Below are positions 2,271 through 38,220 of a stretch of 38,373 nt of DNA, piece by piece. Each line of letters starts with the position of its first letter. Positions within the stretch are counted from its first letter, which is position 1. The stretch lies in assembly GCA_964644695.1 (NCBI GenBank), contig CAZXWN010000018.1, positions 1 to 38,373 on the forward strand. The letters run 5' to 3'. Position numbers and translations under genes: made by a program. The DNA comes from an uncultured bacterium. GTDB taxonomy: Bacteria > UBP4 > UBA4092. Below the pieces are notes generated by a model, which ran no database searches, was not told the origin of the DNA, and saw only the letters and a program-made list of their open reading frames with translations.

Positions 2271-2273
2271 ACT

Positions 2274-10587: not shown

Positions 10588-10968
10588 CTACTTCCGTATT
10601 ATATATTTATAAAGACTAACCAATATATAACCTACGACAGGGATTATCATTGCCAAAAGAGTATAGTAGATAAAACCCATAATAATTTTCCTAGACAGAT
10701 TACTTTGGGGCTGGAGATTTAATGGAGTCGTTACTTCTTCCTTATCAAACGGAAGCGACTCCAGCACCTCATTCGCCTTATCATATAAATTCTCTGGAAC
10801 AAAGACCAGGTGCTCCATCAGATGAGCTTGAGTACCGGGGCTAAAAGTAATACCGGACACATTCCCCTCCTGTAAATAGAAAGGAATCCCCGCCTCTCTG
10901 AGAGCATCCTGTAACATTGACGATTTCCAAAGCATGTCACTCCGAAACAGTAATTTGTGGTCATTCAT
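10588..10968 (-). CDS. DUF2007-like domain protein with C-terminal TM helix
   Basis: LREAGIPF...VFVPE...KANEVL pattern and a hydrophobic C-terminus; AGGGGAA ribosome-binding site. Confidence 0.7.
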   Translation of the reverse strand: MNDHKLLFRSDMLWKSSMLQDALREAGIPFYLQEGNVSGITFSPGTQAHLMEHLVFVPENLYDKANEVLESLPFDKEEVTTPLNLQPQSNLSRKIIMGFIYYTLLAMIIPVVGYILVSLYKYIIRK

Positions 10969-10983
10969 GTGAATCGTTCCCCT

Positions 10984-11322
10984 TTATATTATGTTTTGGA
11001 TCGTTTTCATATAATGACTAAAAAGTAATAAACCCACCAACAGTAGAATCATGCAAATTATCAGATAAATCAAATAAAACCATTTCATGTAGGAACGCTG
11101 CCGTTTGGGTTTTGGTTCAATCGGCATCGGAGGAATAAATTCCACAGGTGTGGATTTGACCGGTAAAGACAATAAGATAGTAACGGCCCTGGACACATCC
11201 TCTTTTGCAACATAGACATGTCCGGGTTCATAACGACAGGGAATACCCGCGATCCCTAATGTATCGCGAAACAAAAGGGCTTTATCCCCATCGCCTTGAA
11301 ATACTTCCACATTACAATCCAT
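10984..11322 (-). CDS. DUF2007-like paralog with C-terminal TM helix
   Basis: LGIAGIPC...VYVAKEDVSRAVTILLSLP; start at ATG 11322 after GGAGG. Confidence 0.65.
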   Translation of the reverse strand: MDCNVEVFQGDGDKALLFRDTLGIAGIPCRYEPGHVYVAKEDVSRAVTILLSLPVKSTPVEFIPPMPIEPKPKRQRSYMKWFYLIYLIICMILLLVGLLLFSHYMKTIQNII

Positions 11323-11463
11323 ACCCTGTCCTCCACCATAATTGTATTCAAATTTCATCCAAACTACAAATGACACAACAGATTCCGTTCAGCCCCCATG
11401 TCAATTGCCTTATAATAAAAGTTCCAAGTTTTAATTATTTCCACTATTTTAAGGAGTCCATCC

Positions 11464-14451: not shown

Positions 14452-16131
14452 ATGAAGCACACATTTTTAAAAGTAGCCGTGGTGGCAGCCGTCCTCTGCC
14501 TGACCCTTCCGGGCTACGCAAAAAAGTACTCTGATGACCCTGCGGGACAGGGAACATCCACTGTGGGAACAGGTGGTGATTACGCCAGTATTCTGGAGGC
14601 ATCACTGGATTTCAACACCACAGCAGCAACAGGAAGTTGGACATTAGAAATCCTCAATGATTTAACAGAAACAGCTCCCGTATTTTTCGGAAAAACTGTG
14701 GATGCAAGTTACACCAACACCATTAAACCCGCCGCCGGAACTAATCCTATAGTTACTTTTACAACATCTTCTACAACCTTGGCTGGTAATTTAGTGTTCG
14801 GTGCTTCTTTCAACACAATTGCCGACCTTATTCCCACAAACAACTTTGTTGTTGATGGTTCTAACAACGGTACCAACAGCAGAAATCTTACATTGACTAA
14901 TACTTCTACATCTAATTCTGCCTGGGTTTATACCGTTCGTGTTTATGGTGACTGTGATAACTTCACCATTAAAAACTGCAATGTTTATAACCGAACCACC
15001 ACGGTAAATTTCTCCTCTGCTATCGGGTTCTGCTCTCGCGTAACCACAGGTGCAACGATTGCATTACATCCTGACAATGCCAAAGTTCAGAACTGCTATG
15101 TTGTTGCCTCCACCATACTGAATGGATCCAGTGCTGCAATAACTTTTGAAGTCAGCGGCACACTCCCAACGGGTTCTGTGGCTACCGGTTTAGAAATAAC
15201 CAATTGCTTTGTGCAAACTTACAATATGCCCCGAGAAATCTTTATTAACAATGCGGTTGGACAAGGTGTCATTTCTTCCAACACCGTTCGTGGTTACCTT
15301 CCTACTGGGGTAAGTGTCGGTTTATGGCCTATCAATGTTAACGGCTCAAACAATTTGGATAACTTCGTTATTTCAAACAATGTAATTGACGAGATGATTA
15401 CGGGCCGTACATCCGCTGGTGACGGCATTATTGCGATGAATCTGAACGGTAAAGCAGGTGGAAATGGCACTGTTGGTAAGTTCTATGTTTATAACAACAC
15501 CATCAGTGGATACAACCTTAACGGAACTCCAAATGCTTTAGGGGTAAAAGTAACCGGTATTCGCCATTATTCAACCAGCGAAGGGTTCTATGTATTCAAC
15601 AATTCCATTAATGTCCCCAATCTAGGCAACTGGACTGGATTAGCAAACTGTTATGCTATTGGATTTGAAAGTGGCGCATACGCTGGTCCGGCTGTTGTGA
15701 AAAACAACATCATTCGAATCAACAATAACCGGTTCGTTGCTATTGCCAAATACAATTCGACCTTAACCACTGCCATCGTGTCCGATTACAATGACATTGT
15801 CACTTTATCTGGTTCCAGTGTTGGTCGTTTTGGCTCAACCTACTATGGTGATTTAGCTTCCTGGCAGGCAATTCCTCTCGCCAACCTTGATGCTAACACA
15901 CAGACTATTAACCCCATGACATCCACCCCTGGTCATTGGATTTCAGAGACCAATCATCACTTTACGGATTCCAATGTAACAGGATTAGCCGCAGGAACAC
16001 CGATTACTACACCGTTCGCCCTGAACACTGATATTGACGGTGATCCCCGCAGCGCAACAACACCATGGCGTGGAATAGATGAAAACGGCTCATTAGTACC
16101 CGTTGAACTATCCGGGTTTGATGCCGAGTAA
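14452..16131 (+). CDS. Secreted right-handed beta-helix-like protein ending in a PVEL motif
   Basis: Signal peptide (..LPGYA); TVGTGGDYASILEA cap; repeated I.NN/VYNNTI/VKNNII strands; TDIDGDPR; ends VPVELSGFDAE*. Confidence 0.75.
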   Translation: MKHTFLKVAVVAAVLCLTLPGYAKKYSDDPAGQGTSTVGTGGDYASILEASLDFNTTAATGSWTLEILNDLTETAPVFFGKTVDASYTNTIKPAAGTNPIVTFTTSSTTLAGNLVFGASFNTIADLIPTNNFVVDGSNNGTNSRNLTLTNTSTSNSAWVYTVRVYGDCDNFTIKNCNVYNRTTTVNFSSAIGFCSRVTTGATIALHPDNAKVQNCYVVASTILNGSSAAITFEVSGTLPTGSVATGLEITNCFVQTYNMPREIFINNAVGQGVISSNTVRGYLPTGVSVGLWPINVNGSNNLDNFVISNNVIDEMITGRTSAGDGIIAMNLNGKAGGNGTVGKFYVYNNTISGYNLNGTPNALGVKVTGIRHYSTSEGFYVFNNSINVPNLGNWTGLANCYAIGFESGAYAGPAVVKNNIIRINNNRFVAIAKYNSTLTTAIVSDYNDIVTLSGSSVGRFGSTYYGDLASWQAIPLANLDANTQTINPMTSTPGHWISETNHHFTDSNVTGLAAGTPITTPFALNTDIDGDPRSATTPWRGIDENGSLVPVELSGFDAE

Positions 16132-20166: not shown

Positions 20167-20631
20167 TTATGAAAAATCTCTCGGATCGGGGTCAAAACGG
20201 GTATTTCCGAGCAAAAAAGGATGTTCTGAGGCAGTATTTCCCGAGATTCGATAGTTTCGAATCTGAGGAAAACCGGGGTTGGTGAGGGAAACAATAAGAT
20301 AGAAAACGGATGGAGAATAGGCTCGCTCGATATCCTGAAGAGAAATGTCCGGGGGTGTATGGGGGTGGGAATGATAAATACCTACTAATTGGAGCTTCTT
20401 CTTACGGATATCTTTCATGGCGGAATACTGGTCTTTAGGGTCGAGTAAATAATTGGAGTTGGGGTGGGTATGTGTATTAGTTCCTGGATAAACCTGAAAC
20501 ACTTGGGCTGAACCATCAGAATCAAACCGTCCCCCCAGTAATCCACAGGCTTCCCGGGACAGGTCTTTACGCAAATGAGAAATAATCATTTCCCAACACG
20601 TATCCGGAATTGAAAAGAAAGGTTTAACCAT
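20167..20631 (-). CDS. JAB/MPN (M67 family, Mec-like) metallopeptidase
   Basis: EACGLLGG...GIYHSHP..PPDISLQD (JAMM E-HxH-S-D motif). Confidence 0.9.
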   Translation of the reverse strand: MVKPFFSIPDTCWEMIISHLRKDLSREACGLLGGRFDSDGSAQVFQVYPGTNTHTHPNSNYLLDPKDQYSAMKDIRKKKLQLVGIYHSHPHTPPDISLQDIERAYSPSVFYLIVSLTNPGFPQIRNYRISGNTASEHPFLLGNTRFDPDPRDFS

Positions 20632-20634
20632 AAT

Positions 20635-21222
20635 TTACATGAGAATATACCCTCTGAAGAGTAACAAAATTAGAGCAGAGGACACCCCGATTGTAATATT
20701 ATCATCCCAAGGCAGGGGTAAGGATTCCAAGAATCCAGCAACCAATGAAGCAATGAGAACTCCCAACCAGATTCCATTCCAAGTCAAAGCTGGAGTCGTC
20801 CATAACATCATGCCCATCGCCGCCAAAAACCCTAACAACCCAAAGAAGAAGGTTCCTTCGATGGTTTTTGAACGATTCCAAGACCAATAATGCCATCCCA
20901 CCCATCGGCTCACCAAGTCAGAAGAAGCGTCCCCGATAGCCAAAATAGCCCATGCCCCGGCAACGACATCCTTATACTGCCATGGAACAACCAAAACCAG
21001 GATCAAAATCGTTACGGGATACGACATGATTCCTCTGAGAAGATGGGAAGATTTCTCCCAGGGCCGAATAATTTCCGGGAAGAGTCGAGGCAGGAGCCAG
21101 AGATTAAATAAGACTGCCATAAAAACGAGGATAGCCGAAGGATATTTACCCATAAAACGCAGGGTAAACGCCCATACTAAAAAGAGGATATGGAGTACCT
21201 TCCGTTTATCTTCACTTAACAT
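20635..21222 (-). CDS. Phytol/dolichol kinase-like (CTP-transferase family) membrane protein
   Basis: RKVLH, GDASSDLV, KTIEGT, ESLP...DDNITI motifs. Confidence 0.8.
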   Translation of the reverse strand: MLSEDKRKVLHILFLVWAFTLRFMGKYPSAILVFMAVLFNLWLLPRLFPEIIRPWEKSSHLLRGIMSYPVTILILVLVVPWQYKDVVAGAWAILAIGDASSDLVSRWVGWHYWSWNRSKTIEGTFFFGLLGFLAAMGMMLWTTPALTWNGIWLGVLIASLVAGFLESLPLPWDDNITIGVSSALILLLFRGYILM

Positions 21223-25012: not shown

Positions 25013-25981
25013 TTAGCCGCGTAAGATTGACAATACTTCTTGATATACAGCCGGAGGGTCTTGAATAAACTGTTTCAATTCTCCGGATACAGGATGGATA
25101 AATTGAATCTCCCGCGCATGCAACATACAGCCCTCGGACTTTTCAAATAAATCCGTGAACTTATGGGTCAACCTATTATACTGGGAAGGACCATATACCA
25201 TATCCCCCATAACCGGATGTCCTAAATAAGACATATGAACCCGAATTTGGTGAGTCCGACCGGTAGTTAATTGACACTCTACCAATCCAAATTTCATTAA
25301 CTCAGAACCCATTTTGTATTGAAACTGTTCCAGCTGATGATAATGTGTGCCGGCCATTCGGCCGCCTTCCTGGACAACAGTTACTTTCTTCCTATCTTTT
25401 GAATCCCTTGCTAATTGAGTTTCAATAAATCCCTCAGGAGAGTGAAAGACACCATTCACCACAGCCCAGTATTTACGAGTAAGTGTCCGGTGCTTTAATT
25501 GGGAGGAAAGAGAATGGTGAGCTTTATCCGTCTTTGCCACGAGCATCAGGCCAGAGGTAACTTTGTCCAACCGGTGAACAATACCAGGGCGTTGAACCCC
25601 ATTAATTCCAGACAAATCTGCAAAACGAAACAGGAGGGCGTGTACCAGCGTCCCTGAATAGTTACCACAGGCAGGATGGACCACCATTCCTGTTGGCTTG
25701 TTTATGACTGCCAGTTGATCATCCTCATACACGACATCCACAGGAATGTCTTCGGGAATGATATCAATATTCTCTGGTTCCGGGACATTTAATTCTATTT
25801 TGTCCCCTGTTGTAATTTTGTGACTGGGACGAATAAAATGGGCATTTACTCGGATATGACCTTCCTGGACCAAGTGTTGAATATAGCTTCGGGAAAGGCC
25901 CAGGTCCTGATGGGAAAGATAAACATCTAATCGTTCCCGGGTCACGTTTTCAGGAATGATTATTTCTAGTTGGCGTGGCAT
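25013..25981 (-). CDS. rluD: RluA-family pseudouridine synthase with S4 domain (RluD-like)
   Basis: RLDVYL, NKPTGMVVHP, RPGIVHRLDK.TSG, TGRTHQIRVH. Confidence 0.92.
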   Translation of the reverse strand: MPRQLEIIIPENVTRERLDVYLSHQDLGLSRSYIQHLVQEGHIRVNAHFIRPSHKITTGDKIELNVPEPENIDIIPEDIPVDVVYEDDQLAVINKPTGMVVHPACGNYSGTLVHALLFRFADLSGINGVQRPGIVHRLDKVTSGLMLVAKTDKAHHSLSSQLKHRTLTRKYWAVVNGVFHSPEGFIETQLARDSKDRKKVTVVQEGGRMAGTHYHQLEQFQYKMGSELMKFGLVECQLTTGRTHQIRVHMSYLGHPVMGDMVYGPSQYNRLTHKFTDLFEKSEGCMLHAREIQFIHPVSGELKQFIQDPPAVYQEVLSILRG

Positions 25982-25996
25982 GAGTGAGGTTTGACC

Positions 25997-27076
25997 CTAC
26001 TTCTTTTCCTGCACTGAATAGACTTCTGGTTTAAGAACTCCAACATAAGGTAATTGGCGATACCGCTCCCCATAATCCAGTCCATATCCCACAACAAATT
26101 CATCTGGGATATCAAAACCAACATAATGGAGTTCCGCCTCACAAGTTCGAGTTGTCTTCTTGTTCAATAATACACAGGTTTTCAATGAGGCTGGTTTGCG
26201 AGAGTTAATATGGTCCACAATGTATCTTAATGTCCGGCCAGAATCATAGATATCTTCCACAATGATGATATCTTTTCCTTCCACATCTTGTTTTAAATCC
26301 ATCACCAGCTTAACATTTCCAGAAGAGGTGGTCTTATCACCATAACTGGACACGGTCATCAAGTCGAATTTACAGGGGATAGTTATTTCACGAAGTAAAT
26401 CTGAAAGAAAGAATAAAGAGCCTTTAAGAACGGATATAAAAACCGGCTCTCGGCCTGCATAATCCTCGGAAATAGCTCGAGCTAAATCCTTTGTTCGTTT
26501 GAACAACTGTCTTTCATTAATCATTATTTTTAATATATCGGGATGTCCGTGAAGAACACCTTCACCATGAATAATTGGCTGTTCCATGGAAGACCTTTCT
26601 GCCATACTCGGCACTGCGGGCGTTTCGCCCGGATGTAGTACCTGCCATATTTCCTTACGAGCTCGAGTCAGGGTAATTCCGTTTTTGTTCAAAATCCGGT
26701 AGGCGATTCCTGTCCCTTCCCGAATCAAACCTAATAACAGATGTTCTGTCCCGACATGGTAATGCCCGAGCAACTGGGCTTCTTGTCGAGCTGATTCAAT
26801 GACATTTAAACCCGTTGGACACATCCTGATAGATTCCAAATCTAGATCATTGGCCACAGGTCGAGACTGAATAGATAAGTGAATAATTTCCCGGCGCATC
26901 AAATCCAAATCAGGATCAAATCGTAATATGGCCTGAATCCCGGGATTGTCATTAGACTCAAGTAAAGATAACAGGATATGTTCAGTGTCGATTTGACGGT
27001 GTTTCATCCGGAAAGCAATTTCCCGGGCACCCATCATAACAATATCCTGAGATTGTTCATTTAGTGATAACCGCAT
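25997..27076 (-). CDS. hpt: Fusion of a Clp N-terminal repeat domain and hypoxanthine phosphoribosyltransferase
   Basis: N-terminal IDTEHILLSLL and EAQLLGHYHVGTEHLLLGLIREGTGIA; C-terminal VLKGS..F.SDL, SSYG, IIVEDIYDSGRTL, FVVGYGLDY.E.YR.LPY; single uninterrupted frame. Confidence 0.9.
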   Translation of the reverse strand: MRLSLNEQSQDIVMMGAREIAFRMKHRQIDTEHILLSLLESNDNPGIQAILRFDPDLDLMRREIIHLSIQSRPVANDLDLESIRMCPTGLNVIESARQEAQLLGHYHVGTEHLLLGLIREGTGIAYRILNKNGITLTRARKEIWQVLHPGETPAVPSMAERSSMEQPIIHGEGVLHGHPDILKIMINERQLFKRTKDLARAISEDYAGREPVFISVLKGSLFFLSDLLREITIPCKFDLMTVSSYGDKTTSSGNVKLVMDLKQDVEGKDIIIVEDIYDSGRTLRYIVDHINSRKPASLKTCVLLNKKTTRTCEAELHYVGFDIPDEFVVGYGLDYGERYRQLPYVGVLKPEVYSVQEKK

Positions 27077-27102
27077 AATTTCCTATCTCTATTTTATGGC
27101 GA

Positions 27103-27876
27103 TTATTCGCCAGTAACAATGGAAACCCCGGCGCTTGCACCAATTCGGGTCGCTCCCGCCTCCACCATAGCCATAGCAACAATGGAGTCTCGAATACCAC
27201 CCGCAGCCTTTACACCGAACTTTGGTCCCATCACAGAGCGCATCAGTTTCACATCATCAACTTCAGCACCCCGAGGGCCAAATCCTGTGGAAGTCTTTAC
27301 ATAATCAGCTTGAGCAGCCTTTGCTATCAAACAGGCTTTGACTTTTTCCTCATCTGTAAGATAACAAGTTTCGATAATTACCTTCAGGAGACTCTCTCCA
27401 CAAATCCGTTTTAACATCAAAATTTCTTCATAGACCTGGGTATACATACCAGACTTCAGCAGTCCGATGGGGATAACCATGTCAATCTCATCAGCACCAT
27501 CTTTCAAAGCAGATTGGGTTTCAAACGCTTTTACTTCTTCAGTAGTGGCACCTAAAGGGAATCCAACGACTGTACAAACTTTTACAGAACTGTCTTCCAA
27601 TTGGTTTTTGGCCAGTTCCACATACACAGGGTTTATACAAACAGATGCAAATCCATGCTCATCAGCTTCGTCACAAAGCTTATAAATCGAAACCGGTAAA
27701 GCATCTGCCTTCAAAATCGTATGATCAATAAAGGGAGCTAAGCCTGTAGCAGAACTTGGAATAATTGGGAACTCTAAAGTACGCACAGGCTCAATCGAAT
27801 CAAAGCTTTTAATTTCATCAGGCTGGTATCCCAGCTGTGGAAGTAATTCCTGTTTAATTTTTTCAATATCGGGCAT
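27103..27876 (-). CDS. deoC: Deoxyribose-phosphate aldolase with N-terminal extension
   Basis: IDHTILK, CTVVGFPLG, GADEIDMV, KVIIET, VKTSTGF, VKAAGGIR; start at ATG 27876 after GGAGG. Confidence 0.95.
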   Translation of the reverse strand: MPDIEKIKQELLPQLGYQPDEIKSFDSIEPVRTLEFPIIPSSATGLAPFIDHTILKADALPVSIYKLCDEADEHGFASVCINPVYVELAKNQLEDSSVKVCTVVGFPLGATTEEVKAFETQSALKDGADEIDMVIPIGLLKSGMYTQVYEEILMLKRICGESLLKVIIETCYLTDEEKVKACLIAKAAQADYVKTSTGFGPRGAEVDDVKLMRSVMGPKFGVKAAGGIRDSIVAMAMVEAGATRIGASAGVSIVTGE

Positions 27877-27897
27877 ACGAAATAACCTCCGTCTCAA

Positions 27898-28767
27898 TTA
27901 CTTATAATATTTACCTATTATGGGTTTCAGGTCTTCCTTTACCTGTGCAGGAATGACACTTGGATTTGTCATAACAGCTGTCTGAAGGGCTGTTCCACAA
28001 GCGCATGTTCGGCTTTCCTGTTCCAGTAAGGGAATCATATTTCGGATAATCTGTTTAGCGTTAGAAACATTACTTTGAAGGTTTTCTATTACCATATCCA
28101 CTGTCACAGAATCATGCTCCTCATGCCAGCAGTCATAATCAGTAACGAAGGTCAGGGCCGCATAACAAATTTCCGCTTCCCTCGCTAATTTAGCTTCAGG
28201 CGAGGTAGTCATACCGATAATATCCATTCCCCAAGATCTGTAAAGATTTGACTCTGCTTTTGTGGAAAAAGCTGGACCTTCCATACATAGCAGTGTCCCG
28301 GCAGAGTGAACATTCAAGGTCAAACCTTCCGTAGCCTGAAGAGCTAACCGCCGCATATTGGGGCAGAAAGGCTCTGCAAAGGCAATATGTCCCACAATAC
28401 CATTTCCAAAAAAAGTATTCGGCATACGACGAGTCCGATCAACTAATTGATCAGGAATCACCAGGTCTCGAGGGCAATAATCAACCCGAAGGGAACCGAC
28501 AGCATTGATACCAATAATTCGTTCTACACCCAGAGATTTCAGTGCCCAGATGTTTGCCCGAACATTCACTTCTGTAGGCAGAATCCGATGCCCACGGCCA
28601 TGTCGGGGAAGAAAGGCAACTTCCCATTCGCCGAGTTTACCAATCATAATTGAATCAGAGGGATCCCCAAATGGAGTTGATATCTTCACCTCACGAAGGT
28701 GGGTCAGCCCTTCAATTTCATATAAACCGCTGCCACCGATTACCGCTACTTTAACTTGCTCACTCAT
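27898..28767 (-). CDS. mtnP: S-methyl-5'-thioadenosine phosphorylase
   Basis: IGGSGLY, TPFGDPS, PRHGRGH, EGPAFSTKAES, IGMT..PEAKLAREAE, VTDYDCW (DxD, adenine-type); ATG 28767 after GGAGG. Confidence 0.95.
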   Translation of the reverse strand: MSEQVKVAVIGGSGLYEIEGLTHLREVKISTPFGDPSDSIMIGKLGEWEVAFLPRHGRGHRILPTEVNVRANIWALKSLGVERIIGINAVGSLRVDYCPRDLVIPDQLVDRTRRMPNTFFGNGIVGHIAFAEPFCPNMRRLALQATEGLTLNVHSAGTLLCMEGPAFSTKAESNLYRSWGMDIIGMTTSPEAKLAREAEICYAALTFVTDYDCWHEEHDSVTVDMVIENLQSNVSNAKQIIRNMIPLLEQESRTCACGTALQTAVMTNPSVIPAQVKEDLKPIIGKYYK

Positions 28768-28871
28768 ATTCACATCCTCCGGTGAATCACATTAAGTCCA
28801 AACAGGTACCCATTCAATATAGATATAGTTTTTCATTATATCGTATCCGAGAACTGCAGGGAGTCAAACCA

Positions 28872-30338
28872 TCAGGGGCGAGATTCTACTCGGATAATCA
28901 CAGTCTCAAAAGACTGGGGGAAATAGCGATATAAAAGGGCTTCCGGCCTGCTGGTCACCTGTGGCGTCACCATAATATCCGGTAACAAGGGTAAAGTGCG
29001 CGCAGTAAATTGAGCTTCCGGAATAATTACAAACCGCCGATTAATCTGACCCAGTTCGTAAGCTAAATCCGTTTGAATATTATGAAGACAAATATAATCA
29101 CCTGGCTGGACTAGCGCCAAATCATAGTATTCAACGGGCAACCCACTCCAGAACCGAATTTTAGAATTAGTGGTTCCCTGCCGATATATCTCATTATCAA
29201 AAATTCGTTTCCCAGCAAGTTTATCTCTCATGTAATCCGCGGCCTGGTGAATATCTCCAAAGGTGCCTCGCTGTACATATAACGATACTATTGCAAACAA
29301 AAGACTGTACAATATCATAAAACCAACAACACTCTTCCTCCAAACCCTGTTATTTACCTCTTGTAGCTGAATTGCACCACAGGCACTAACAACAATCGTT
29401 AGGGATATCAGAGGGAGAAAATATCTAAACTGAAAAGACTGGAAGGGGGCATGTGCCGCCAGCCAGGCCATCCACAGATAAACAAGTAAACCTATCATAA
29501 ACTTAAAAGATCTATTCCAGTGTCCACAGAACAGGGCATAAAGGAAGACAATAAAAACAGGGTAAGTCGCTACATAGGGGAAGAAGGTGACAAAACCTTC
29601 ACCCATTGTCAGATATGCCGCTAATGTCGTGAAAGTATCGGTCGCCGTGCGTTCCATATACTGACCCATATGACCCGATCCGCGATAACTCCACCAAAGA
29701 GGTAACATCACCCAGGACACAAAGGCTGTCACCCAAACACTTAAATTGGATGGCTTAAAAAGCATTTTGAATGATACCTTCCTGCGAACCGTCATCCAAC
29801 CCAGTATCGGGAATAAAGCCATTCCCTGGTATCGTGTCAACACAGCCAACCCACCCGCCAACCAGGCAAATCCAAGATGTTTTATGATAGATTCCCCATC
29901 ATCCTGACTATCCCAAACAGCCACCAGATGTGCCAGACACCAAAGAAACAGGGTGTTAAACAAGGCGTCCGTCATTACCCGATTGTGCCAACGCCATATT
30001 TCAGGAGATACCAGATATAACGCTGCGGCCAAAACACCCGCTCTATGGTTTTTGAGTCGCCGAGCCATAAAATATACAGGGAAAATCCCGGCAACACCTG
30101 AAATCATGGAGACTAGTTTTCCGGAAAGTTCCATATCCCTGAACAAACAGTTCAAACCTTCAGCTAAAACCGTATATAACGGCATAAAAAAGGTATTACT
30201 GGCAGCGGAACTAAATAAAGTCAGCTGGAGAATACCATCAGTGTATTCTCCCTGATTCCAATAGACAAAAATCAACCGGCTGGCTAATCCCAGCAAGAAG
30301 AGTATCCATAACTGTTTTTTCTGATTTCCAGTCATCAT
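28872..30338 (-). CDS. GT-C fold (GT39/PMT_2/ArnT-like) polytopic glycosyltransferase
   Basis: Many TM segments; EYTDG loop, PLY, MTDALF, LTRYQG, FRYFLP. Confidence 0.75.
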   Translation of the reverse strand: MMTGNQKKQLWILFLLGLASRLIFVYWNQGEYTDGILQLTLFSSAASNTFFMPLYTVLAEGLNCLFRDMELSGKLVSMISGVAGIFPVYFMARRLKNHRAGVLAAALYLVSPEIWRWHNRVMTDALFNTLFLWCLAHLVAVWDSQDDGESIIKHLGFAWLAGGLAVLTRYQGMALFPILGWMTVRRKVSFKMLFKPSNLSVWVTAFVSWVMLPLWWSYRGSGHMGQYMERTATDTFTTLAAYLTMGEGFVTFFPYVATYPVFIVFLYALFCGHWNRSFKFMIGLLVYLWMAWLAAHAPFQSFQFRYFLPLISLTIVVSACGAIQLQEVNNRVWRKSVVGFMILYSLLFAIVSLYVQRGTFGDIHQAADYMRDKLAGKRIFDNEIYRQGTTNSKIRFWSGLPVEYYDLALVQPGDYICLHNIQTDLAYELGQINRRFVIIPEAQFTARTLPLLPDIMVTPQVTSRPEALLYRYFPQSFETVIIRVESRP

Positions 30339-30499: not shown

Positions 30500-31756
30500 T
30501 TATTTCCTTTTAGGCTGGTACGGTTTCTGAAGTTTCTCCAGTATAAACTGCGCAAGCCGCCGATGTGCCAATCGAGAGGGATGTCCATCTAAGGGTATGG
30601 AATATAAATCATGATGATCGCCATACCGGCGGGACATCTCCATGGATGTGTACACTTCAGCCGGACTTTGTTTCAACTTATAGTATAGGTAATTATAGTT
30701 AGGGTCATAATCCGCCGTCCATAAAATAACAATGAACCGATCTCCATATTTTTTCAAGAACTCTTCACGAGTTTGAGCGATGATGGCTAATAACAAGTCC
30801 TGATCGGCCTGCGTAGTTTCCCAGCCCAGCCAGTGAGATTCAACAGCTCTTTGAAAAAGCACCGACATATGTAAATAGATAGACCATGATTTATGCATCC
30901 ATCTGGAATTAGCATTATCATCCATGGGACCTTTATACTTAACTTTTCCCGTAGATTCCAAGATATATTGGGGACCCCCAATACCATACAATACACTGGG
31001 ATAATTTCCAGACACCCGATTTACATGATCTCCAAATACCTGAATCACTCCAATCATCGGCTTATCGGAAGAAACATATTTACTGAGTTCCCCTGTTTCC
31101 AGAATTCGCAACGACTGGTGGGGCCCATATCCAATATAGGCAAGATTATGAGTCCGGTATTTCCCATCAGACATATCCTCTAATAAATAAGACATCGTCT
31201 GATTATCTTTCACACCCTGCCCCCAAACAAAAGAACATCCGAAACAAACAATATCTCTAACATCCGACCGGAATTTCATCGGCTTTATATCATGGGGACT
31301 GACCCGAAGCCCTTGATGATTGGTTGTGTAGATTACATCAAATACTTCCATCCCATTGACCACTTTTCTGCTACTGAATCGCCGATCAGAGGGAGGGATT
31401 TTCCCCCGGATAGAGTCACGGATATCGTTCTCGCTGGAATAAAAGTTGCCTGACCATTGCTCTTGATGAATATTTTTATTCAAACGACCCAGAAAATACC
31501 ATCCTCCAAGGTAATCCTCAAAACCCGCAAGCACCACAAAAATTAAACTCAAATTGAATAATAAAAGCTTGAAATTCTCTGAACGCCCGGGGCGTGTCAT
31601 TAGATAAAACAAAAGACCTGCGATACCCCCAAAGATATACACATAGGGACAAAAAGCAATATAGTGAATGATCGCCCAATAAAGAAACAACAGGAGGATT
31701 GCAATTCCTGCCCTGCGAAAGAGTTTCAAGAAACGGTTTGTGGGATAAAAATACAA
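30500..31756 (-). CDS. Membrane-anchored SGNH/GDSL-fold protein
   Basis: N-terminal TM segments; TNHQGLR, FGCSFVWG (GDS-like block I), GYGP, DGHPS (block V); TTG start. Confidence 0.75.
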   Translation of the reverse strand: MYFYPTNRFLKLFRRAGIAILLLFLYWAIIHYIAFCPYVYIFGGIAGLLFYLMTRPGRSENFKLLLFNLSLIFVVLAGFEDYLGGWYFLGRLNKNIHQEQWSGNFYSSENDIRDSIRGKIPPSDRRFSSRKVVNGMEVFDVIYTTNHQGLRVSPHDIKPMKFRSDVRDIVCFGCSFVWGQGVKDNQTMSYLLEDMSDGKYRTHNLAYIGYGPHQSLRILETGELSKYVSSDKPMIGVIQVFGDHVNRVSGNYPSVLYGIGGPQYILESTGKVKYKGPMDDNANSRWMHKSWSIYLHMSVLFQRAVESHWLGWETTQADQDLLLAIIAQTREEFLKKYGDRFIVILWTADYDPNYNYLYYKLKQSPAEVYTSMEMSRRYGDHHDLYSIPLDGHPSRLAHRRLAQFILEKLQKPYQPKRK

Positions 31757-31770
31757 ATTACCCTCTCTGA

Positions 31771-33633
31771 CTAATCCAGGACATAATCCGATTTCCAGTC
31801 CTTCTTATCTTTCCACACGGGTTGCTGTTTCTTATCCAGAAGATATGGACCTACCACCAGATAGTCCATTTCCGTCCGCATAAAACACCGATAAGCATCT
31901 TCAGGAGTACAGACTATGGGTTCCCCACGAACGTTGAAACTGGTATTCACCAAAACAGCAACTCCTGTTAAGTCAAAAAATGAAGATATCAACTGGTGAT
32001 ACACCGGATTCGTTTGTTTGTTTACCGATTGGATGCGAGCCGAATAATCAATATGAGTAATCGAGGGTAAATCTGATCTCAGGAAATATAACTTCTCTTT
32101 CCAAGACTGATCATGATAATCCCAGGGAACAGGTATCCGCCTTGACTCTTTGACTCCTGCTATCAGCAACATATATGGGGAAGGCCGGTCCAATTCAAAA
32201 TAATCAGCCACATTCCCCTCTAAAACGGAGGGAGCAAAGGGACGGAATCCTTCCCGATATTTAATCTTTAAGTTTAATTTCTTCTGCATCTCCGGATTAC
32301 GAGGGTCTGCCAATATAGACCGATTTCCCAAAGCTCTGGGACCAAACTCCATCCGTCCTTGAAACCATCCAACGACATTTCCTTCAGAGATCAACCGAGC
32401 AGTCTTGTCACAAAGAGTCTTCATTGAATCTGTCTTTTCCATGACAGCTTGATATCGGCGGAGTGATTTTTCGATTTCCTTATCTGAAAACTCCGGACCC
32501 AGGTAAGACCCGGACATCCTATCTGTTTTATCATCCGACACCCGAAGACAATTTTCTTTAAGATGATGAACACAAAATGCCGCCCCTACAGCACCACCCG
32601 CATCACCCGCCGCAGGTTGAATCCAGATATCCTTAAAGATACCTGAACGGAGTAATTCACCATTTGCCACACAATTCAGAGCCACTCCTCCGGCCAGACA
32701 TAAATACTCTGCACTCGTTAATGACCGGACATGTTTCGCCATCAGGATAACAATTTCTTCTGTGACCTGTTGAATAGCCAGTGCCAGGTCACAATGTTCC
32801 GCTGACATATCATCCTCTGGTTTCCTGACTTTGATACCAAAAAGTTTTTCCCATTTTGATTCCCGGACCATCTTCAGGCCAGTTGCATAATCGAAATAGT
32901 CCTGATTTAACCACACGGACCCATCTTCATAAATCTGGATCAGATTTTCTTTTATCTTTTGTATAAACTCTTTCACCCGCGGCGACCCAGGGTTTCCGTA
33001 AGGAGCCAAACCCATCAGTTTATATTCACCCGAGTTAACACGAAAACCCAGATAATAAGTAAAGGCTGAATATAATAATCCAATTGAATGAGGGAAATGC
33101 ATTTCCTTCAACAATTCAATTTGATTTCCCTTTCCATGACAGATGGATGCGGTAGCCCATTCACCCACACCATCCAAAGTCAGGATGGCCGCCTCATTAA
33201 ACGGTGAAGGATAAAAGGCACTGGCCGCATGCGATAAATGATGTTCAGGAAACAACAGGCGAATCTGTTTATTATGACTGGGGCTGATTTCCGCCAGTTC
33301 TTTTCTGAGCATGTCTTTCAATAACAGTTTTTCTTTAATCCAGACCGGCATCGACTTCAAAAACGAGACGACTCCCCGGGGAGCAAAGGCATAATATGTT
33401 TCTAATAACCGCTCAAATTTAATAAAAGGTTTATCGTAAAATGCCACCCACTCCACTTGATCTAAATCGATACAGGCCTCATCCAGACAATATCTTATTG
33501 CATTTGTGGGAAAAGACGGATCATGTTTTTTTCGGGTAAACCGTTCTTCCTGAGCGGCAGCAATCAGCACCCCATCTTTCAATAAGGCGGCGGCGGAGTC
33601 ATGGTAAAACGCTGAAATTCCAAGTATATACAT
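31771..33633 (-). CDS. NodU/CmcH family O-carbamoyltransferase (SxtI-like)
   Basis: ILGISAFYHDSAA, EERFTRKKHD, HHLSHAASAF, GEYKLMGLAPYG, GGVALNC, GPRALGNRS, NTSFN. Confidence 0.95.
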   Translation of the reverse strand: MYILGISAFYHDSAAALLKDGVLIAAAQEERFTRKKHDPSFPTNAIRYCLDEACIDLDQVEWVAFYDKPFIKFERLLETYYAFAPRGVVSFLKSMPVWIKEKLLLKDMLRKELAEISPSHNKQIRLLFPEHHLSHAASAFYPSPFNEAAILTLDGVGEWATASICHGKGNQIELLKEMHFPHSIGLLYSAFTYYLGFRVNSGEYKLMGLAPYGNPGSPRVKEFIQKIKENLIQIYEDGSVWLNQDYFDYATGLKMVRESKWEKLFGIKVRKPEDDMSAEHCDLALAIQQVTEEIVILMAKHVRSLTSAEYLCLAGGVALNCVANGELLRSGIFKDIWIQPAAGDAGGAVGAAFCVHHLKENCLRVSDDKTDRMSGSYLGPEFSDKEIEKSLRRYQAVMEKTDSMKTLCDKTARLISEGNVVGWFQGRMEFGPRALGNRSILADPRNPEMQKKLNLKIKYREGFRPFAPSVLEGNVADYFELDRPSPYMLLIAGVKESRRIPVPWDYHDQSWKEKLYFLRSDLPSITHIDYSARIQSVNKQTNPVYHQLISSFFDLTGVAVLVNTSFNVRGEPIVCTPEDAYRCFMRTEMDYLVVGPYLLDKKQQPVWKDKKDWKSDYVLD

Positions 33634-33642
33634 GGGGATTTT

Positions 33643-34026
33643 TTACCAGATATTATCCAGGTCCTTTCCTTTATAGGGATGGGATCGGGTAATCCAGATA
33701 GTTTTTTCCGGTTTTTTCAGGTTCAGTAAATCCCCTTTAACCAGACGAAATGCCAGAGCGATGGGTACTAAGAAAACATAATAAATGACGGATAATACCA
33801 GTGGATTTACAATCCTGCTCAATAAATCCCCCAGCTTCATCCAATAGGTAGCGATGAGCCGCGCCACAGGTTGAATCCACAAGCCAATAACCATAAAGAT
33901 TACAGCCAACCCAAGCACGAGGGGAATATTCACCCTTTTCCCCAACAAACAAAACAGAACACAAACCAGTGCAAATAAACAATGGATTTCCAGTATTTGA
34001 TATCGTGTTAAGGGTTTATTTTTCAT
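33643..34026 (-). CDS. SxtJ-family membrane protein
   Basis: W..LG..L...V.P.VL..IYY.FL.PI...R...D.L pattern; immediately upstream of the carbamoyltransferase. Confidence 0.8.
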   Translation of the reverse strand: MKNKPLTRYQILEIHCLFALVCVLFCLLGKRVNIPLVLGLAVIFMVIGLWIQPVARLIATYWMKLGDLLSRIVNPLVLSVIYYVFLVPIALAFRLVKGDLLNLKKPEKTIWITRSHPYKGKDLDNIW

Positions 34027-34160: not shown

Positions 34161-35699
34161 ATGCCGAATTATTTTACACAGACTGATTCATCAGAAACAA
34201 TTCACCTTCATCAAAGCCAAAGCCTTATCAATCTGGGGGCTTTATTTTATACGGGATTAGCCATTTTCCTGGCATTTGCGGGCAATTTTGCCATGATTTA
34301 TACCGAAAAAGGGATAGGCGAATGGTTGTTAGCCGTTGGATTTATTGTTTCTTCGTTATGTTTAATGATAAATATCTCTGACCGAATGAGAAAACCAACG
34401 GATTTATTTTATATTCTAATCCCTCTGTTTTTGATTCTTCGGTTTGGGTGGATTTGCCTGATGCCGCCAGTTCAACGGTTTGATACAGACCTTTACTTGT
34501 CTCTGGCCACCCAATATTCACAAGACAATTTTAATATTACCAGTAAGGATGCAGAGATTATTTATACTGTCCCCTTTAAGGTAGGTTACCCCTTCCTGAT
34601 GTCTTTCATTTTCAGGATTTTTGGTGCTGAGCAAATCACAGCGCTGACTGTCAATTTACTGGCGGATGTCGGCTGTCTGATTACCCTTTATTTTCTGGCC
34701 AGGGATTTATTCAATCAAAGAGTCGCTCTTTGTACGGTAATTCTTTACACTCTGTTTCCTACGGGCATCATGTATTCCATGTTTGTGACTTATGAACACT
34801 GGTATATTCTCTTTATGCTGTTGATGTTGATGACCGCCCTTCGCGGCATCAAATCTGATAAAGAGTATCTTCTGGGTCTCAGCGGTGTATTAGGAGGAAT
34901 CACTTATCTGATTAAACCCACCATCAGTCCCATGATATTCTTGTTTCTCCCGTATATCCTCCTGGTATCACCCTTTAAAGAATGGAAAAAGAAACTCAAA
35001 GAAGTCCTGTTCATCATTCTGATATTTATCTTTTCCTGCCAAATCATCAACTTCTGGGTTACATCCTCCACAGGGGTACGGATTCAAGACCATTCCGCCG
35101 CTTATTCCATGATGATGGGGTCAAGCCTCATTTCACGAGGAGGGGTTGATGATACGTTAGTGGACAGGCTTAATCCTTACCTGGCATACCCACAAACAGC
35201 AAATCAAATCGCCAAAGATATTGCTGCCGAGAACTGGGAAAACAACCCGTCCATGAAATCCGTATTAATTTATTGGAAGTTTCTGATTCAGTGGTCTGAT
35301 GAACATGTCACACATTATCTCTGTGCTTATGTTGATTCGGATAATCCCGGGAAATTCCAGCATTTCGTCTTCACCTTCATCAAAGATTTTCGGTGTTATG
35401 TCATGACCTATTACGGAATCATATTGGCTCTGGCTTTTGTAGGGATATTCCTGGGATATTCCCGTCAGCCCTGGACAGTGTATTTCTGTTTGTTTTTACT
35501 GTTTAATATCGGGATGTATTTTATTCTGGAAGTCACCCCTCGATACCGATACAGTATGACCCCGCTTATGATGATTTTTGCGGGGTATACCCTCAGTTAT
35601 TTCCCGAAAGAACAGGTCAATCTGGATTTAGGGAAACTTTTTAAACAAACAATTCCAGGCTTTTTTCGAAAGGCGGATAAATCACACCTCGGTCAGTGA
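34161..35699 (+). CDS. GT-C fold (GT39-like) membrane glycosyltransferase
   Basis: Polytopic; FDTDLY, PFKVGYP, TYEH, IKP, EVTPRYRY. Confidence 0.75.
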   Translation: MPNYFTQTDSSETIHLHQSQSLINLGALFYTGLAIFLAFAGNFAMIYTEKGIGEWLLAVGFIVSSLCLMINISDRMRKPTDLFYILIPLFLILRFGWICLMPPVQRFDTDLYLSLATQYSQDNFNITSKDAEIIYTVPFKVGYPFLMSFIFRIFGAEQITALTVNLLADVGCLITLYFLARDLFNQRVALCTVILYTLFPTGIMYSMFVTYEHWYILFMLLMLMTALRGIKSDKEYLLGLSGVLGGITYLIKPTISPMIFLFLPYILLVSPFKEWKKKLKEVLFIILIFIFSCQIINFWVTSSTGVRIQDHSAAYSMMMGSSLISRGGVDDTLVDRLNPYLAYPQTANQIAKDIAAENWENNPSMKSVLIYWKFLIQWSDEHVTHYLCAYVDSDNPGKFQHFVFTFIKDFRCYVMTYYGIILALAFVGIFLGYSRQPWTVYFCLFLLFNIGMYFILEVTPRYRYSMTPLMMIFAGYTLSYFPKEQVNLDLGKLFKQTIPGFFRKADKSHLGQ

Positions 35700-36675
35700 T
35701 CCACGCTGTAATTAACTCATGGGGTGTGACATCAAAAGCCGGATTAAACACTTTTACATTGTCCGGTGCCGTTTGTTTACCAAACCCGTTTATGATTTCG
35801 TGAGCAGGCCGTTCTTCAATAGGTATTTGAGACCCATCGGCAATATTCAAATCAATTGTGGAGGTTGGAGCGGCAATATACATGGGGATTCCATGATATT
35901 TGGCATTGATGGCAACACTGTAAGTTCCAATCTTATTGGCAGTATCCCCATTTCGAGCAATCCGGTCTGCTCCCACAATGACCGCATCAATCTTTCCCTG
36001 CTTCATCACCATCGCCGCCATGTTGTCACAAATCAGAGTCACATCAATGCCGTTTTCCTGGAGTTCCCAGGCTGTTAACCGGGCACCCTGTAATAATGGC
36101 CGGGTTTCATCGGCATATACTTTGATTTTCTTACCCAGTTCAACGGCTCGATAAATAACAGCCAGCGCAGTCCCATAATCCGCCGTTGCCAGTCCGCCCG
36201 CATTACAATGGGTCAGGACCGTCATTCCATCCTGAAGCAGGTCAGCACCATATTGTCCCATCTTCCGGCACATCATCCGGTCTTCTTCATAGATAGACAG
36301 GGCTTCCTGTTTCAAACGGGATATCAATTCCGGAACGGGAAGAGACACCTGAGTCTGGCAAAAAGACCTCATCCGTTCAATGGCCCAGGCCAGGTTTACT
36401 GCTGTCGGTCTGCATTCTTTCAGGTAATCTGCCAGCCGGTTAAATTCATTCATAAACCGGTCTTTATCCCAGGCTTGAAGATTCTGGATTCCCAGACATA
36501 ACCCAAAGGCTCCAGCGATGCCAATAGCCGGTGCTCCCCGTACTTTCAATACCTTGATGGCATCCCAGACTTCCTCAGGGGTAGTGTAATCTACCTGTTC
36601 ATATTTGATGGGAAGTTGGGTCTGGTCAATAATTCGTACTTTATCATTTATCCATTGAATTGTCGGTACAGGCAT
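35641..36675 (-). CDS. mtnA: S-methyl-5-thioribose-1-phosphate isomerase
   Basis: IDQTQLP, VRGAPAIG, RPTAVNL, LTHCNAGGLAT, ETRPLLQGARLTAWE, GADRIA.NGDTANKIGTY, NPAFDVTP. Confidence 0.97.
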   Translation of the reverse strand: MPVPTIQWINDKVRIIDQTQLPIKYEQVDYTTPEEVWDAIKVLKVRGAPAIGIAGAFGLCLGIQNLQAWDKDRFMNEFNRLADYLKECRPTAVNLAWAIERMRSFCQTQVSLPVPELISRLKQEALSIYEEDRMMCRKMGQYGADLLQDGMTVLTHCNAGGLATADYGTALAVIYRAVELGKKIKVYADETRPLLQGARLTAWELQENGIDVTLICDNMAAMVMKQGKIDAVIVGADRIARNGDTANKIGTYSVAINAKYHGIPMYIAAPTSTIDLNIADGSQIPIEERPAHEIINGFGKQTAPDNVKVFNPAFDVTPHELITAWITDRGVIYPPFEKSLELFV

Positions 36676-36762: not shown

Positions 36763-38220
36763 GTGACCTCAAACTGGGAAAACATACAAACGAAACTTCG
36801 GCACTATACGATGATAACTGCCGCCGGATTCCTGTTGTTAGCCATCCTGGGAGCATTACCTTACCACATCTTATTCCAATTCAGAGGAGTTCCAGCCTTT
36901 GTATTGGGAATTACCGTACTGGGGTTATTCCTCTTTTTCTGGAATAGAGTAACCCAGCCGATGTCATCCCGAGTAAATATCATCCTTGATATCGTCTTAC
37001 TCTCCCTGATATATATTGTCCCCCGGGTCCTGATAATCCATTATTTCCCAGTTCATATTCAGATCGATTTTTCTCAATACCATGAATACGCCTCTCAACT
37101 TGCAAAAGGAATCACTTTCCCTATCCGGGAGTATGACCAGTGGTTTTTATATCTTCCGTTCAAGGCGGGATATGCCGCTTTTTTGTCTCTGATTTACCAA
37201 TGGTTTGGAACTGACCCGGCCTGGGGACGAATCATAAACCTGATTGCGGGATACCTGTCCATGGGATTGGTCTATCGAATCACACTTGAAGGGTTTTCCC
37301 GACCCGCGGCCCGAGGTGCGGCTTTAATGATGGCCATGCTTCCTTCTTATCTGTTGTATGTTCCACATCTGGGGACAGAACCACTCTTTACCCTGTTTTT
37401 CCTGACAACAGTCTATTTGATTTGGAAGTCTATCCATCATCCCAAAGGATATCTCTATTTCGCCGCAGGATTGACCGCGGCCACGGCGACAGTATTCAGG
37501 CCAACGATTCCCCCATTACTGGCGGCGATGATTGTCTGGTTGATTTTATATCTCCCCCGAACAGTCTGGAAAAAGACTCTCCTTTACCTGGGAATCCTGT
37601 TAGTTACTTTTATTTCAGGTGTCAGTTTCTGGACATATTCGATTGAAAACAGAACCACTCTGAACATTCAGGAAACCTCTCCATGGTTATCCCTGATGAT
37701 TGGATCCACAGTTTCCTCGGGAGGGCGGCCACTCCCCTATCATTACCATTCACTGGACCCGATTCTCAAAGACCGGGAAGCCTGTGACCGATTCTGTATC
37801 CAGGAAATCAAAAAGAATCTGAATGACATTAAATCCGTATGGCCCTCTTTCCTGTGGCAAAAGTACCGGAATACCTGGTCAGGTGATGATTACAGTCTGA
37901 TATTTACTCATGACTATCTGATTCAAAGTAAGGCACCCAGGGTATGGAACTGGTTTGACCGGAATTTCTATGCCATCTGGCATATTCAAGCCATGGCGTT
38001 CACTCTTTTGTTAATCCTGACACTGGCAGGGTTCTGGTATTACCGAAACGGTCATCCTCTCATCACTTTAGTGTCGTTTGTTTTTCTGGCTTACATGGTC
38101 TTCCACATGATTATGGAGGCACAGTATCGGTATCATTACCAGGTTGTGCCATTACTCATGATTCCGGCAGGTGCGGCTATTGCTCGACTCTTGAAATCTG
38201 ATACCACCCGTACACAATAA
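36763..38220 (+). CDS. GT-C fold (GT39-like) membrane glycosyltransferase, paralog of 34161-35699
   Basis: Polytopic; IDFSQY, PFKAGY, GTEPLF, FRP, EAQYRYHY; start codon uncertain (GTG 36763 or a later ATG). Confidence 0.75.
   Translation: MTSNWENIQTKLRHYTMITAAGFLLLAILGALPYHILFQFRGVPAFVLGITVLGLFLFFWNRVTQPMSSRVNIILDIVLLSLIYIVPRVLIIHYFPVHIQIDFSQYHEYASQLAKGITFPIREYDQWFLYLPFKAGYAAFLSLIYQWFGTDPAWGRIINLIAGYLSMGLVYRITLEGFSRPAARGAALMMAMLPSYLLYVPHLGTEPLFTLFFLTTVYLIWKSIHHPKGYLYFAAGLTAATATVFRPTIPPLLAAMIVWLILYLPRTVWKKTLLYLGILLVTFISGVSFWTYSIENRTTLNIQETSPWLSLMIGSTVSSGGRPLPYHYHSLDPILKDREACDRFCIQEIKKNLNDIKSVWPSFLWQKYRNTWSGDDYSLIFTHDYLIQSKAPRVWNWFDRNFYAIWHIQAMAFTLLLILTLAGFWYYRNGHPLITLVSFVFLAYMVFHMIMEAQYRYHYQVVPLLMIPAGAAIARLLKSDTTRTQ

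Follow-up and report, generated by a model that had tools for sequence, protein, structure and literature searches.

A ClpC-type N-terminal domain fused to the HPRT of an uncultured UBP4 bacterium and its possible link to arginine phosphorylation

Closest described systems and the fused gene

ClpC is known to read phospho-arginine as a mark for degradation, and a 2026 preprint shows that the ClpC2 repressor reads it too, as a signal. ClpC2 of mycobacteria and Streptomyces consists of a helix-turn-helix (HTH) repressor followed by a C-terminal domain similar to the N-terminal domain (NTD) of ClpC1, and serves as phospho-arginine sensor and as cyclomarin sponge; according to PMC13345244, one phospho-arginine site suffices in it, binding changing both its oligomer state and its output. 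Regarding purine salvage, PMC6783271 presents bacterial hypoxanthine phosphoribosyltransferase (HPRT) as active in the form of a dimer bound to phosphoribosyl pyrophosphate (PRPP), with guanosine tetra- or pentaphosphate, (p)ppGpp, holding it as a tetramer. No link between HprT and ClpC is drawn in the available part of a review on HprT, arginine phosphorylation and ClpC. Here we describe a protein that joins parts of the two. In a stretch of 38,373 nucleotides from an uncultured bacterium of the UBP4 lineage (contig CAZXWN010000018.1 of assembly GCA_964644695.1), whose whole length is called the window below, one gene encodes a ClpC-type N-terminal domain followed by a complete HPRT. This sole HPRT of its genome carries a diverged duplicate of the N-domain of the lineage's own ClpC, on an unconserved tether of ~25-35 residues that is predicted to be disordered.

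A sequence-only reading of this stretch had described a single 359-residue frame with a double Clp-N repeat, a linker and a complete HPRT, a description with which Pfam and the NCBIfam model TIGR01203 agree, while leaving unstated that the gene lies on the minus strand. In the 359-residue open reading frame (ORF), Pfam detects solely Clp_N (PF02861, 88.5 bits in two stretches, cut-off 20.7) and Pribosyltran (98 bits, residues 189-335), and the HGPRTase model TIGR01203 scores 198.6 bits (cut-off 150; 200.9 bits in the genome search). No AAA+ module, such as a ClpC/Hsp100 unfoldase would have, is found in the ORF, and the next gene is rluD, as that reading had also stated. Its TEH motif in each repeat was likewise recovered, IDTEHILL spanning residues 29-36 and VGTEHLLLGLIREGTGIA residues 108-125, and the linker sequence HPGETPAVPSMAERSSMEQ... 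is present. The best sequence match of the N-domain in the PDB is 5hbn_A (E=3.4e-29), and the HPRT half matches 1r3u_A (E=2.9e-56). Since the stop-to-stop frame spans merely 361 residues, its ATG being essentially the first possible start, the gene cannot begin further upstream. Its features are as follows.

25997..27076, minus strand: whole Clp_N-HPRT gene, 359 codons and stop (ORF call, Pfam, NCBIfam)
26633..27076, minus strand: ClpC-type N-terminal domain, residues 1-148, with eight helices in all, repeat 1 at about residues 1-72 and repeat 2 at about residues 80-148 (Pfam Clp_N, match to PDB 5hbn_A, AF2, VIA)
26978..26986, minus strand: first TEH motif, T31 E32 H33, aligned with T31-E32-H33 of B. 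subtilis ClpC
26741..26749, minus strand: second TEH motif, T110 E111 H112, aligned residue by residue with T105-E106-H107 of B. subtilis ClpC
26546..26632, minus strand: linker, residues 149-177, unconserved and predicted disordered
26000..26545, minus strand: HPRT catalytic domain, residues 178-359 (TIGR01203, PDB 1r3u_A, VIA)
27081..27084, minus strand: Shine-Dalgarno-like AGGA, 4 nt ahead of the ATG (sequence pattern only)

In comparison with ClpC (B. subtilis ClpC and M. tuberculosis ClpC1), the fused N-domain displays the same double Clp_N repeat and eight-helix fold (Z 18.8 and 36% identity to 3pxg_A), shares with it the REGxG loop of repeat 2 and the Glu in each TEH motif, and descends from the ClpC of the phylum itself. 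On the contrary, the fusion protein has neither AAA+ modules nor M-domain nor ClpP loop, HPRT following instead; it has lost R9 and K85, its repeat-1 α2-α3 loop and several pocket Thr are changed, and α8 bears a new invariant surface. With ClpC2 it shares a Clp_N domain set as putative ligand-sensing module on a non-AAA+ protein. It differs in that the partner is a metabolic enzyme and not a DNA-binding domain and in that Clp_N is N-terminal, the order of the parts being reversed, so it is no ClpC2-type repressor; it is also distant in sequence (E 1e-7 to 2e-7 to ClpC2 chains versus 1e-29 to ClpC), and independent in origin, stemming from the ClpC of this phylum. The protein is thus an HPRT family member with a bona fide Clp_N, and neither a ClpC nor a ClpC2. 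By analogy, its mode would be closest to that of ClpC2, namely a Clp_N sensor on a non-AAA+ effector, the effector being here an enzyme. No description of a Clp_N-HPRT architecture was found in the literature covered, supplements and subscription journals standing outside that coverage.

Both domains are modelled by AlphaFold as confidently folded, their mutual placement not being confident. Alignment A5, in which 31 plain HPRTs accompany 6 fused proteins, served to build the model, with a mean predicted local distance difference test (pLDDT) value of 89.4 and a predicted template modelling (pTM) score of 0.58. Its N-domain, with pLDDT values of 91-98, contains helices at residues 7-23, 31-40, 45-51, 57-71, 87-102, 110-120, 123-131, and 136-147, and the HPRT core reaches 92-98, residues 154-171 staying below 50. 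An earlier model from alignment A3, poor in its HPRT half (mean pLDDT 68.9), was used only for a Foldseek search, in which HPRTs were listed, and alignments A2 and A4, mixing N-domain fragments with HPRT-only sequences and misplacing the fragments onto HPRT, were left out of folding. When 48,161 representative chains were searched with VIA, the N-domain gave Z values of 18.4-19.8 to ClpB, ClpC, ClpA, and ClpC2 N-domains, those to ClpC and ClpB being 18.8-19.8, and the HPRT half a Z of 24.4 to the HGPRT 3acb_A (root-mean-square deviation of 1.8 Å over 165 residues), no chain listed covering both halves.

The HPRT half keeps every column that is invariant in 37/37 sequences of A5, including L217, G219, Y245, E274, D275, D278, G280, K306, G330, G332, D334, and R340, which we take to belong to the LKG loop I, the SSYG loop II, the VEDIxDxGxT motif, the purine-binding Lys, and the Asp of GYGLDY. 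Judged by these motifs, the enzyme is catalytically intact. It presents the full catalytic core of the bacterial (p)ppGpp-regulated enzymes (HprT/Hpt), with 50-52% identity to those of T. tengcongensis and B. anthracis, to which it adds an N-terminal extension of 177 residues, and a RelA/SpoT homologue occurs in the genome. Its K256 falls opposite K81 in the alignment, an interface lysine of Hpt-1 from B. anthracis and, in PMC6783271, of the tetramer-forming, (p)ppGpp-sensitive type; for this mapping, chain index and published numbering are assumed to differ by 3 residues. The W82/P86/A110 signature, given in the same paper for constitutively dimeric, (p)ppGpp-insensitive HPRTs, is absent here. 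Fusion-specific residues are few in the HPRT rows of alignment A2 (K193, D197, D247, and K307), nothing striking being found among them.

Distribution and origin of the fusion

The fusion gene is confirmed to be real and conserved, and not an artefact. Among 41 genomes searched, it is found in all three genomes of family f1 (G000, which is that of the window, G001, and G002), each from a genus of its own and assembled separately, the gene lying on contigs of 38-561 kb; the whole phylum amounts to 5 genomes in the collection used. An intact 359-residue copy with the same neighbours is also present in a close strain, at L133:4144-5223 of metagenome contig L133, and a 1131-nt contig of run X6, which belongs to another study, covers 25900-27001 and runs through the domain junction without indels. 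The four runs compared come from biogas-fermenter, wastewater, and sludge metagenomes. The recurrence in relatives and the independent spanning of the junction, both proposed as checks in the sequence-only reading, thus turned out in favour of the gene, and the refutation it had envisaged, a fusion missing in relatives or chimeric in assembly, is contradicted by 3/3 family genomes and the independent contigs.

Of the 120 best matches listed for a database of 5.8 billion clustered proteins, 6 carry both domains, namely P0002 (99% identical), P0003 and P0004 (60 and 59%), P0005 and P0006 (53 and 54%), and P0007, which is a fragment; the other listed matches are plain HPRTs or Clp_N proteins. A protein atlas yielded no match of use. 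HMMER over 1.84 billion cluster representatives matched both domains in one stretch in two (P0003 and P0007) of the 150 listed. A scan of genome contigs, from which records near the genome of the window may be omitted, kept 80 loci, all of them matching the HPRT part only and none a further fusion. Two proteins with a database label of Pribosyltran, P0127 and P0175, were rejected as further fusions, being pure Clp_N arrays, and so were matches of G004 in frames of 403 and 480 residues, which belong to a ClpC and a ClpB truncated where their contigs stop. G004 (95% complete, in 360 contigs) yielded no hpt above cut-off, which is not proof of absence.

The surroundings of the gene inform on its origin. 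The operon mtnP-deoC-hpt-rluD, as named in the sequence-only reading, was reproduced by family models of its members, all four genes lying on the minus strand with gaps around the fusion gene of 26 nt on the deoC side and 15 nt on the rluD side.

27898..28773, minus strand: mtnP-type S-methyl-5'-thioadenosine/purine nucleoside phosphorylase, first in the cluster (TIGR01694, 321.4 versus 274.85 bits; PNP_UDP_1)
27103..27897, minus strand: deoC, deoxyribose-phosphate aldolase, upstream of the fusion (TIGR00126, 277 versus 117.3 bits)
25013..25981, minus strand: rluD-type pseudouridine synthase, downstream (PseudoU_synth_2, 114.7 bits, and S4)

G000, G001, and G002 share the order PNP-DeoC-HPRT-RluD, with the fused gene, and so does G003, of the sister family, where an unfused hpt of 179 residues, 65-66% identical to the HPRT half, occupies the same position. 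This unfused hpt at the same site indicates that one family gained the N-domain segment in place, on the 5' side of its hpt. A maximum-likelihood tree was built from 29 N-domains (5 fused, 1 fused to GNAT, 18 labelled ClpC-type, and 5 labelled ClpB). In it, the five fused N-domains form one clade (support 100/100), nested (97/99) in a clade that otherwise holds solely the ClpC N-domains of the phylum itself, which makes the lineage's own clpC the source, by in-lineage duplication. A long stem branch, of 1.02 changes per column, leads to the fused clade.

A second, independent fusion was observed in G002, of the same family, at L103:2297-3367 on the minus strand. Its 356 residues comprise two Clp_N stretches (104 bits) and Acetyltransf_3 (83.5 bits), of a RimL-like GNAT acetyltransferase whose best NCBIfam match, L7/L12-serine acetyltransferase, reaches 112.8 bits where the cut-off is 184. 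The N-domain of this fusion shares 76% identity with that of the ClpC of G002 itself, and the protein is a singleton in the protein database.

Possible ligand and role of the fused N-domain

In PMC12583610, E32 and E106 of ClpC mark two phospho-arginine pockets, T7 being in the pocket with E106, and R9 and K85 anchor the N-domain in the resting state of ClpC. For ClpC2, PMC13345244 describes a single pocket, made by the N-terminus of α1, the α2-α3 loop, and the α5-α6 loop, in which two Thr touch the ligand, a change of Thr to Ala abolishing binding. Pocket compositions were taken from these two papers, the second site being placed by inferred pseudo-symmetry.

E32 and E111 of the fusion protein align with E32 and E106 of ClpC from B. 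subtilis and S. aureus, both Glu being invariant in the fusion family. At the first motif, E32 and H33 are invariant in 5/5 full-length members, residue 31 being T or S, and the E32 pocket appears well kept, with position 86 occupied by C here and by S in 4/5, with T/S31, and with a canonical LIREGxG loop in the second repeat. At the second motif, E111 and H112 are invariant in 6/6 members (the close strain having H112D), with T, V, I, P, P, and T at position 110. The ClpC anchors R9 and K85 are replaced, K85 by L, A, or I, a loss that is expected because the fused N-domain has no AAA+ body on which to dock. Retention of the TEH Glu and Thr is necessary, and not sufficient, for phospho-arginine binding, and is not diagnostic of it, as it is general in Clp_N repeats and also seen in the ClpB of the phylum.

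The genome (3.07 Mb, 98.7% complete) encodes an arginine-phosphorylation system. It holds an operon mcsA (173 residues)-mcsB (360 residues)-clpC, and a true ClpC (832-residue frame) and ClpB (869-residue frame) are encoded elsewhere than the fusion; two low-molecular-weight phosphatase homologues, the RelA/SpoT homologue mentioned above, and PurH are also present. A search for a second, unfused hpt returned none above cut-off, the fused gene being the only HPRT above it here as well as in G001 and G002; the second-best phosphoribosyltransferase match of the genome is PyrR, and a third reaches 20.7 bits. Both the presence of mcsB and clpC and the uniqueness of hpt had been named as checks before. 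The earlier interpretation is partly supported, the checks speaking for a real and possibly meaningful fusion and its functional part being conjecture.

In the reading that we favour, tentatively and short of an even chance, the fused N-domain would be a tethered module, most likely still able to bind phospho-arginine, that reads this mark or McsB and docks HPRT to the McsA/McsB-ClpC arginine-phosphorylation system of the genome, so that HPRT activity, oligomer state, or turnover would be coupled to proteotoxic stress. The ligand would be auto-phosphorylated McsB or damaged proteins marked by McsB, bound via the better-kept pocket, formed by S/C86, T/S31-E32, and the REGxG loop, and occupancy of this pocket would change HPRT output under proteotoxic stress. 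Two routes can be conceived. Much as phospho-arginine dissociates the oligomers of ClpC2, binding might tilt the equilibrium between dimer and tetramer on which the activity of bacterial HPRT and its response to (p)ppGpp depend. Alternatively, it might bring the kinase to HPRT, which would then be marked for degradation by ClpCP; the former is ranked slightly above the latter because of the ClpC2 precedent. By either route, purine salvage and GTP supply would fall as protein damage rises.

Several observations weigh against this proposal. The AlphaFold model (pTM 0.58) shows no confident interdomain contact and thus gives no structural support for allosteric coupling. The E111 pocket is remodelled, with N at position 6 where 4/5 have T, and with T, V, I, or P at position 110; the close strain has H107N and H112D. 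The α2-α3 loop of repeat 1 is of ESNDN type instead of REGxG, with family-invariant E40 and N44, and the TEH Glu, like most of these Thr, are found in the N-domains of the phylum's ClpB as well. Moreover, CtsR was not found in the genome at its 98.7% completeness, and McsB adjoins clpC in 5/5 genomes of the phylum, fused or not, making a co-occurrence signal between McsB and the fusion impossible. One RNA-library contig of 223 nt over the HPRT part, a weak hint of transcription, is the sole evidence of expression. Finally, the long stem branch and the family-specific surface described next suggest that the N-domain may have moved to a new ligand.

The most serious alternative, though a doubtful one, develops this last point. 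The N-domain would have been re-purposed and would no longer read phospho-arginine, binding instead a lineage-specific partner or HPRT itself via a family-specific surface or a hydrophobic groove; in a variant of the same doubtful standing, the partner might be a further enzyme of salvage, a client protein in unfolded form, or a small molecule, and HPRT would be localised, assembled, or regulated independently of McsB. Such a surface does exist, made by L5, E40, N44, F53, G89, Y126, T137, K141, W144, and V146, which are invariant in the family and each present in 0-6% of 17 ClpC N-domains, and it extends over a new invariant α8 stretch, L136-T-R-A-R-K-E-x-W144, without counterpart in those 17. 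The length of the stem branch after the duplication, a remodelled pocket that varies between strains, the loss of R9 and K85, and the occurrence of Clp_N on many unrelated non-AAA+ proteins, which suggests a general-purpose binding module, are all in line with it. On the contrary, the family strictly retains both TEH Glu and the canonical loop of repeat 2, the domain stems from the lineage's own ClpC in a genome that retains the arginine kinase operon, the gene context points to no partner beyond salvage genes, and no docking onto HPRT is seen in the AlphaFold model.

It is improbable that the N-domains act as multivalent decoy, sponge, or holdase, with 2-4 of them displayed by an HPRT dimer or tetramer whose catalysis is unaffected. 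In the equally improbable variant of this idea, they would buffer proteins marked by phospho-arginine or soak up natural products that target the N-domain, and ClpC would be shielded in the way reported for mycobacterial ClpC2. ClpC2 itself is an antibiotic sponge and is proposed, in PMC13345244, as chaperone for phospho-arginine proteins; a tetramer-type interface lysine is present in the HPRT part, and the N-domains could extend outward on their flexible linker. However, this account leaves unexplained why the sole HPRT of a salvage operon should be the scaffold, kept in situ in three genera; K85, a contact of cyclic peptides in ClpC1 according to PMC12583610, is replaced by L/A/I, and to act stoichiometrically a sponge would have to be abundant or inducible in its expression.

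Sequence conservation bears on whether the N-domain matters at all. Between genera, fused N-domains are 47-52% identical, the HPRT half 67-72%, and the linker, variable in length, 11-17%, ClpB and ClpC N-domains of the same genomes being 48-53% and 53-63% identical, respectively. Forty-eight columns are invariant among 5 fused N-domains. Strain differences in the gene are 27/32 synonymous among those listed (25 further ones exist beyond the listing), with 13 synonymous and 5 nonsynonymous changes in the N-domain, that is, a ratio of nonsynonymous to synonymous polymorphism (pN/pS) of 0.12, and with 14 and 0, respectively, in linker and HPRT. From this pattern of substitution, the N-domain is under purifying selection. 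The five replacements are E19K, D54N, L103I, H107N, and H112D, of which L103I, H107N, and H112D cluster around the second TEH motif; listed from H112D back to E19K, they lie at window positions 26743, 26758, 26770, 26917, and 27022, the close strain of contig L133 carrying H112D, H107N, D54N, and E19K, and run X12 carrying L103I.

A functionally neutral passenger, with HPRT active at full length or produced from an internal start at M158 or M164, is very improbable. It could appeal to the confinement of the fusion to one small family, to the location of all 5 listed nonsynonymous strain differences in the N-domain, one of them at a TEH His, and to an AGG placed 6 nt ahead of M164. Against it stand the low pN/pS of the N-domain among the differences listed, an identity over three genera that is similar to that of same-genome ClpB N-domains, the 48 invariant columns, and a well-folded N-domain in the AlphaFold model. 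The internal Met from which the sequence-only reading considered a short HPRT is not conserved, only 2/6 family members having a Met in the linker.

An assembly chimera or lost stop codon can practically be dismissed, as the ends of contigs from runs X3 and X12 near 26522-26541, close to the domain boundary, are outweighed by the same in-frame architecture in three separately assembled genomes (contigs of 38-561 kb), by contig L133 and the junction-bridging contig of X6, and by conserved synteny, independent assemblies having already refuted it. These X3 and X12 contigs, from different studies and with a depth of 4-6x, both stop at the linker/HPRT boundary; given the other evidence, their ends are not taken as sign of a chimera. 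In runs X3 and X20, parts of 25900-27200 have no cover.

Wider setting and remaining genes of the window

Returning to the proposed tethered reader of phospho-arginine, a broader and more doubtful proposal is that arginine phosphorylation acts as a metabolic signal, a reader derived from ClpC and placed in cis letting phospho-arginine switch purine salvage, beside (p)ppGpp or replacing it. If so, this would be the first case of a phospho-arginine signal reaching a metabolic enzyme, here an essential-type salvage enzyme, and it suggests that protein-damage signalling may extend directly into nucleotide metabolism. The ClpC-NTD-GNAT fusion of G002 and the Clp_N-enzyme fusions of other phyla would then hint at a wider, unrecognised class of phospho-arginine-gated enzymes. 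The compact two-domain protein lets the idea be tested directly, and its in-lineage origin, together with the unfused ortholog of the sister family, offers a clean before-and-after pair.

Clp_N as portable module is common and essentially unstudied. A search with the N-domain region yielded 5313 proteins at E<=1e-5, and among the 120 listed there are many non-AAA+ Clp_N proteins of 197-629 residues; these many uncharacterised proteins suggest that the question is broader than one gene. The population includes tandem arrays with 2-3 complete N-domains and proteins that join Clp_N to GerE HTH, HIT, ArgC-like dehydrogenase, DinB, glyoxalase, UVR, or ClpX zinc finger, to which a further search adds PIG-L, with P0016, P0176, P0196, P0204, P0207, P0208, P0212, P0218, P0160, P0167, and P0438 as examples, their sources, where named, being Chloroflexota, Limnocylindria, and Planctomycetota. 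The tandem Clp_N arrays of Chloroflexota and Planctomycetota differ from the fusion by having no enzyme domain. The plant proteins ClpT1 and ClpT2, as well as orphan Clp_N proteins, resemble it in having Clp_N without AAA+ (VIA Z of 17.2 to ClpT1), and differ from it in that ClpT binds the ClpP core.

HPRT also occurs fused or linked to other functions, as in TilS-HPRT, HPRT-FtsH, and SnoaL-HPRT proteins, an AAA+ protease being included among them (P0268). Clp_N was found in none of the 13 other multidomain HPRTs scanned, which are of these three types or unassigned. Several of them are TilS-HPRT, so that links of HPRT both to TilS and to an AAA+ protease recur, and P0268, a representative of 576 residues, combines HPRT with AAA and Peptidase_M41 of FtsH and could be a read-through gene call.

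A scan of the window for promoters and terminators gave counts at shuffle level. Further nucleoside-salvage genes lie at 1422-3461 on the plus strand, namely a second PNP_UDP_1 phosphorylase followed by a phosphopentomutase-like protein of the Metalloenzyme family, and at 35641-36675 on the minus strand, an IF-2B family protein (MtnA-like methylthioribose-1-phosphate isomerase). Around the salvage cluster, three membrane glycosyltransferases of the PMT_2 family and a carbamoyltransferase are encoded (28872-30338, minus; 34161-35699, plus; 36763-38220, plus; and 31771-33633, minus), and in G001, too, the cluster is followed by a gene of the PMT_2 family. Five ORFs of 126-559 residues have no Pfam match at E<=1e-5, at 14452-16131 (plus), 30500-31756 (minus), 20635-21222 (minus), 10588-11376 (minus), and 33643-34026 (minus), the one of 195 residues adjoining a gene with a Prok-JAB domain (20167-20631).

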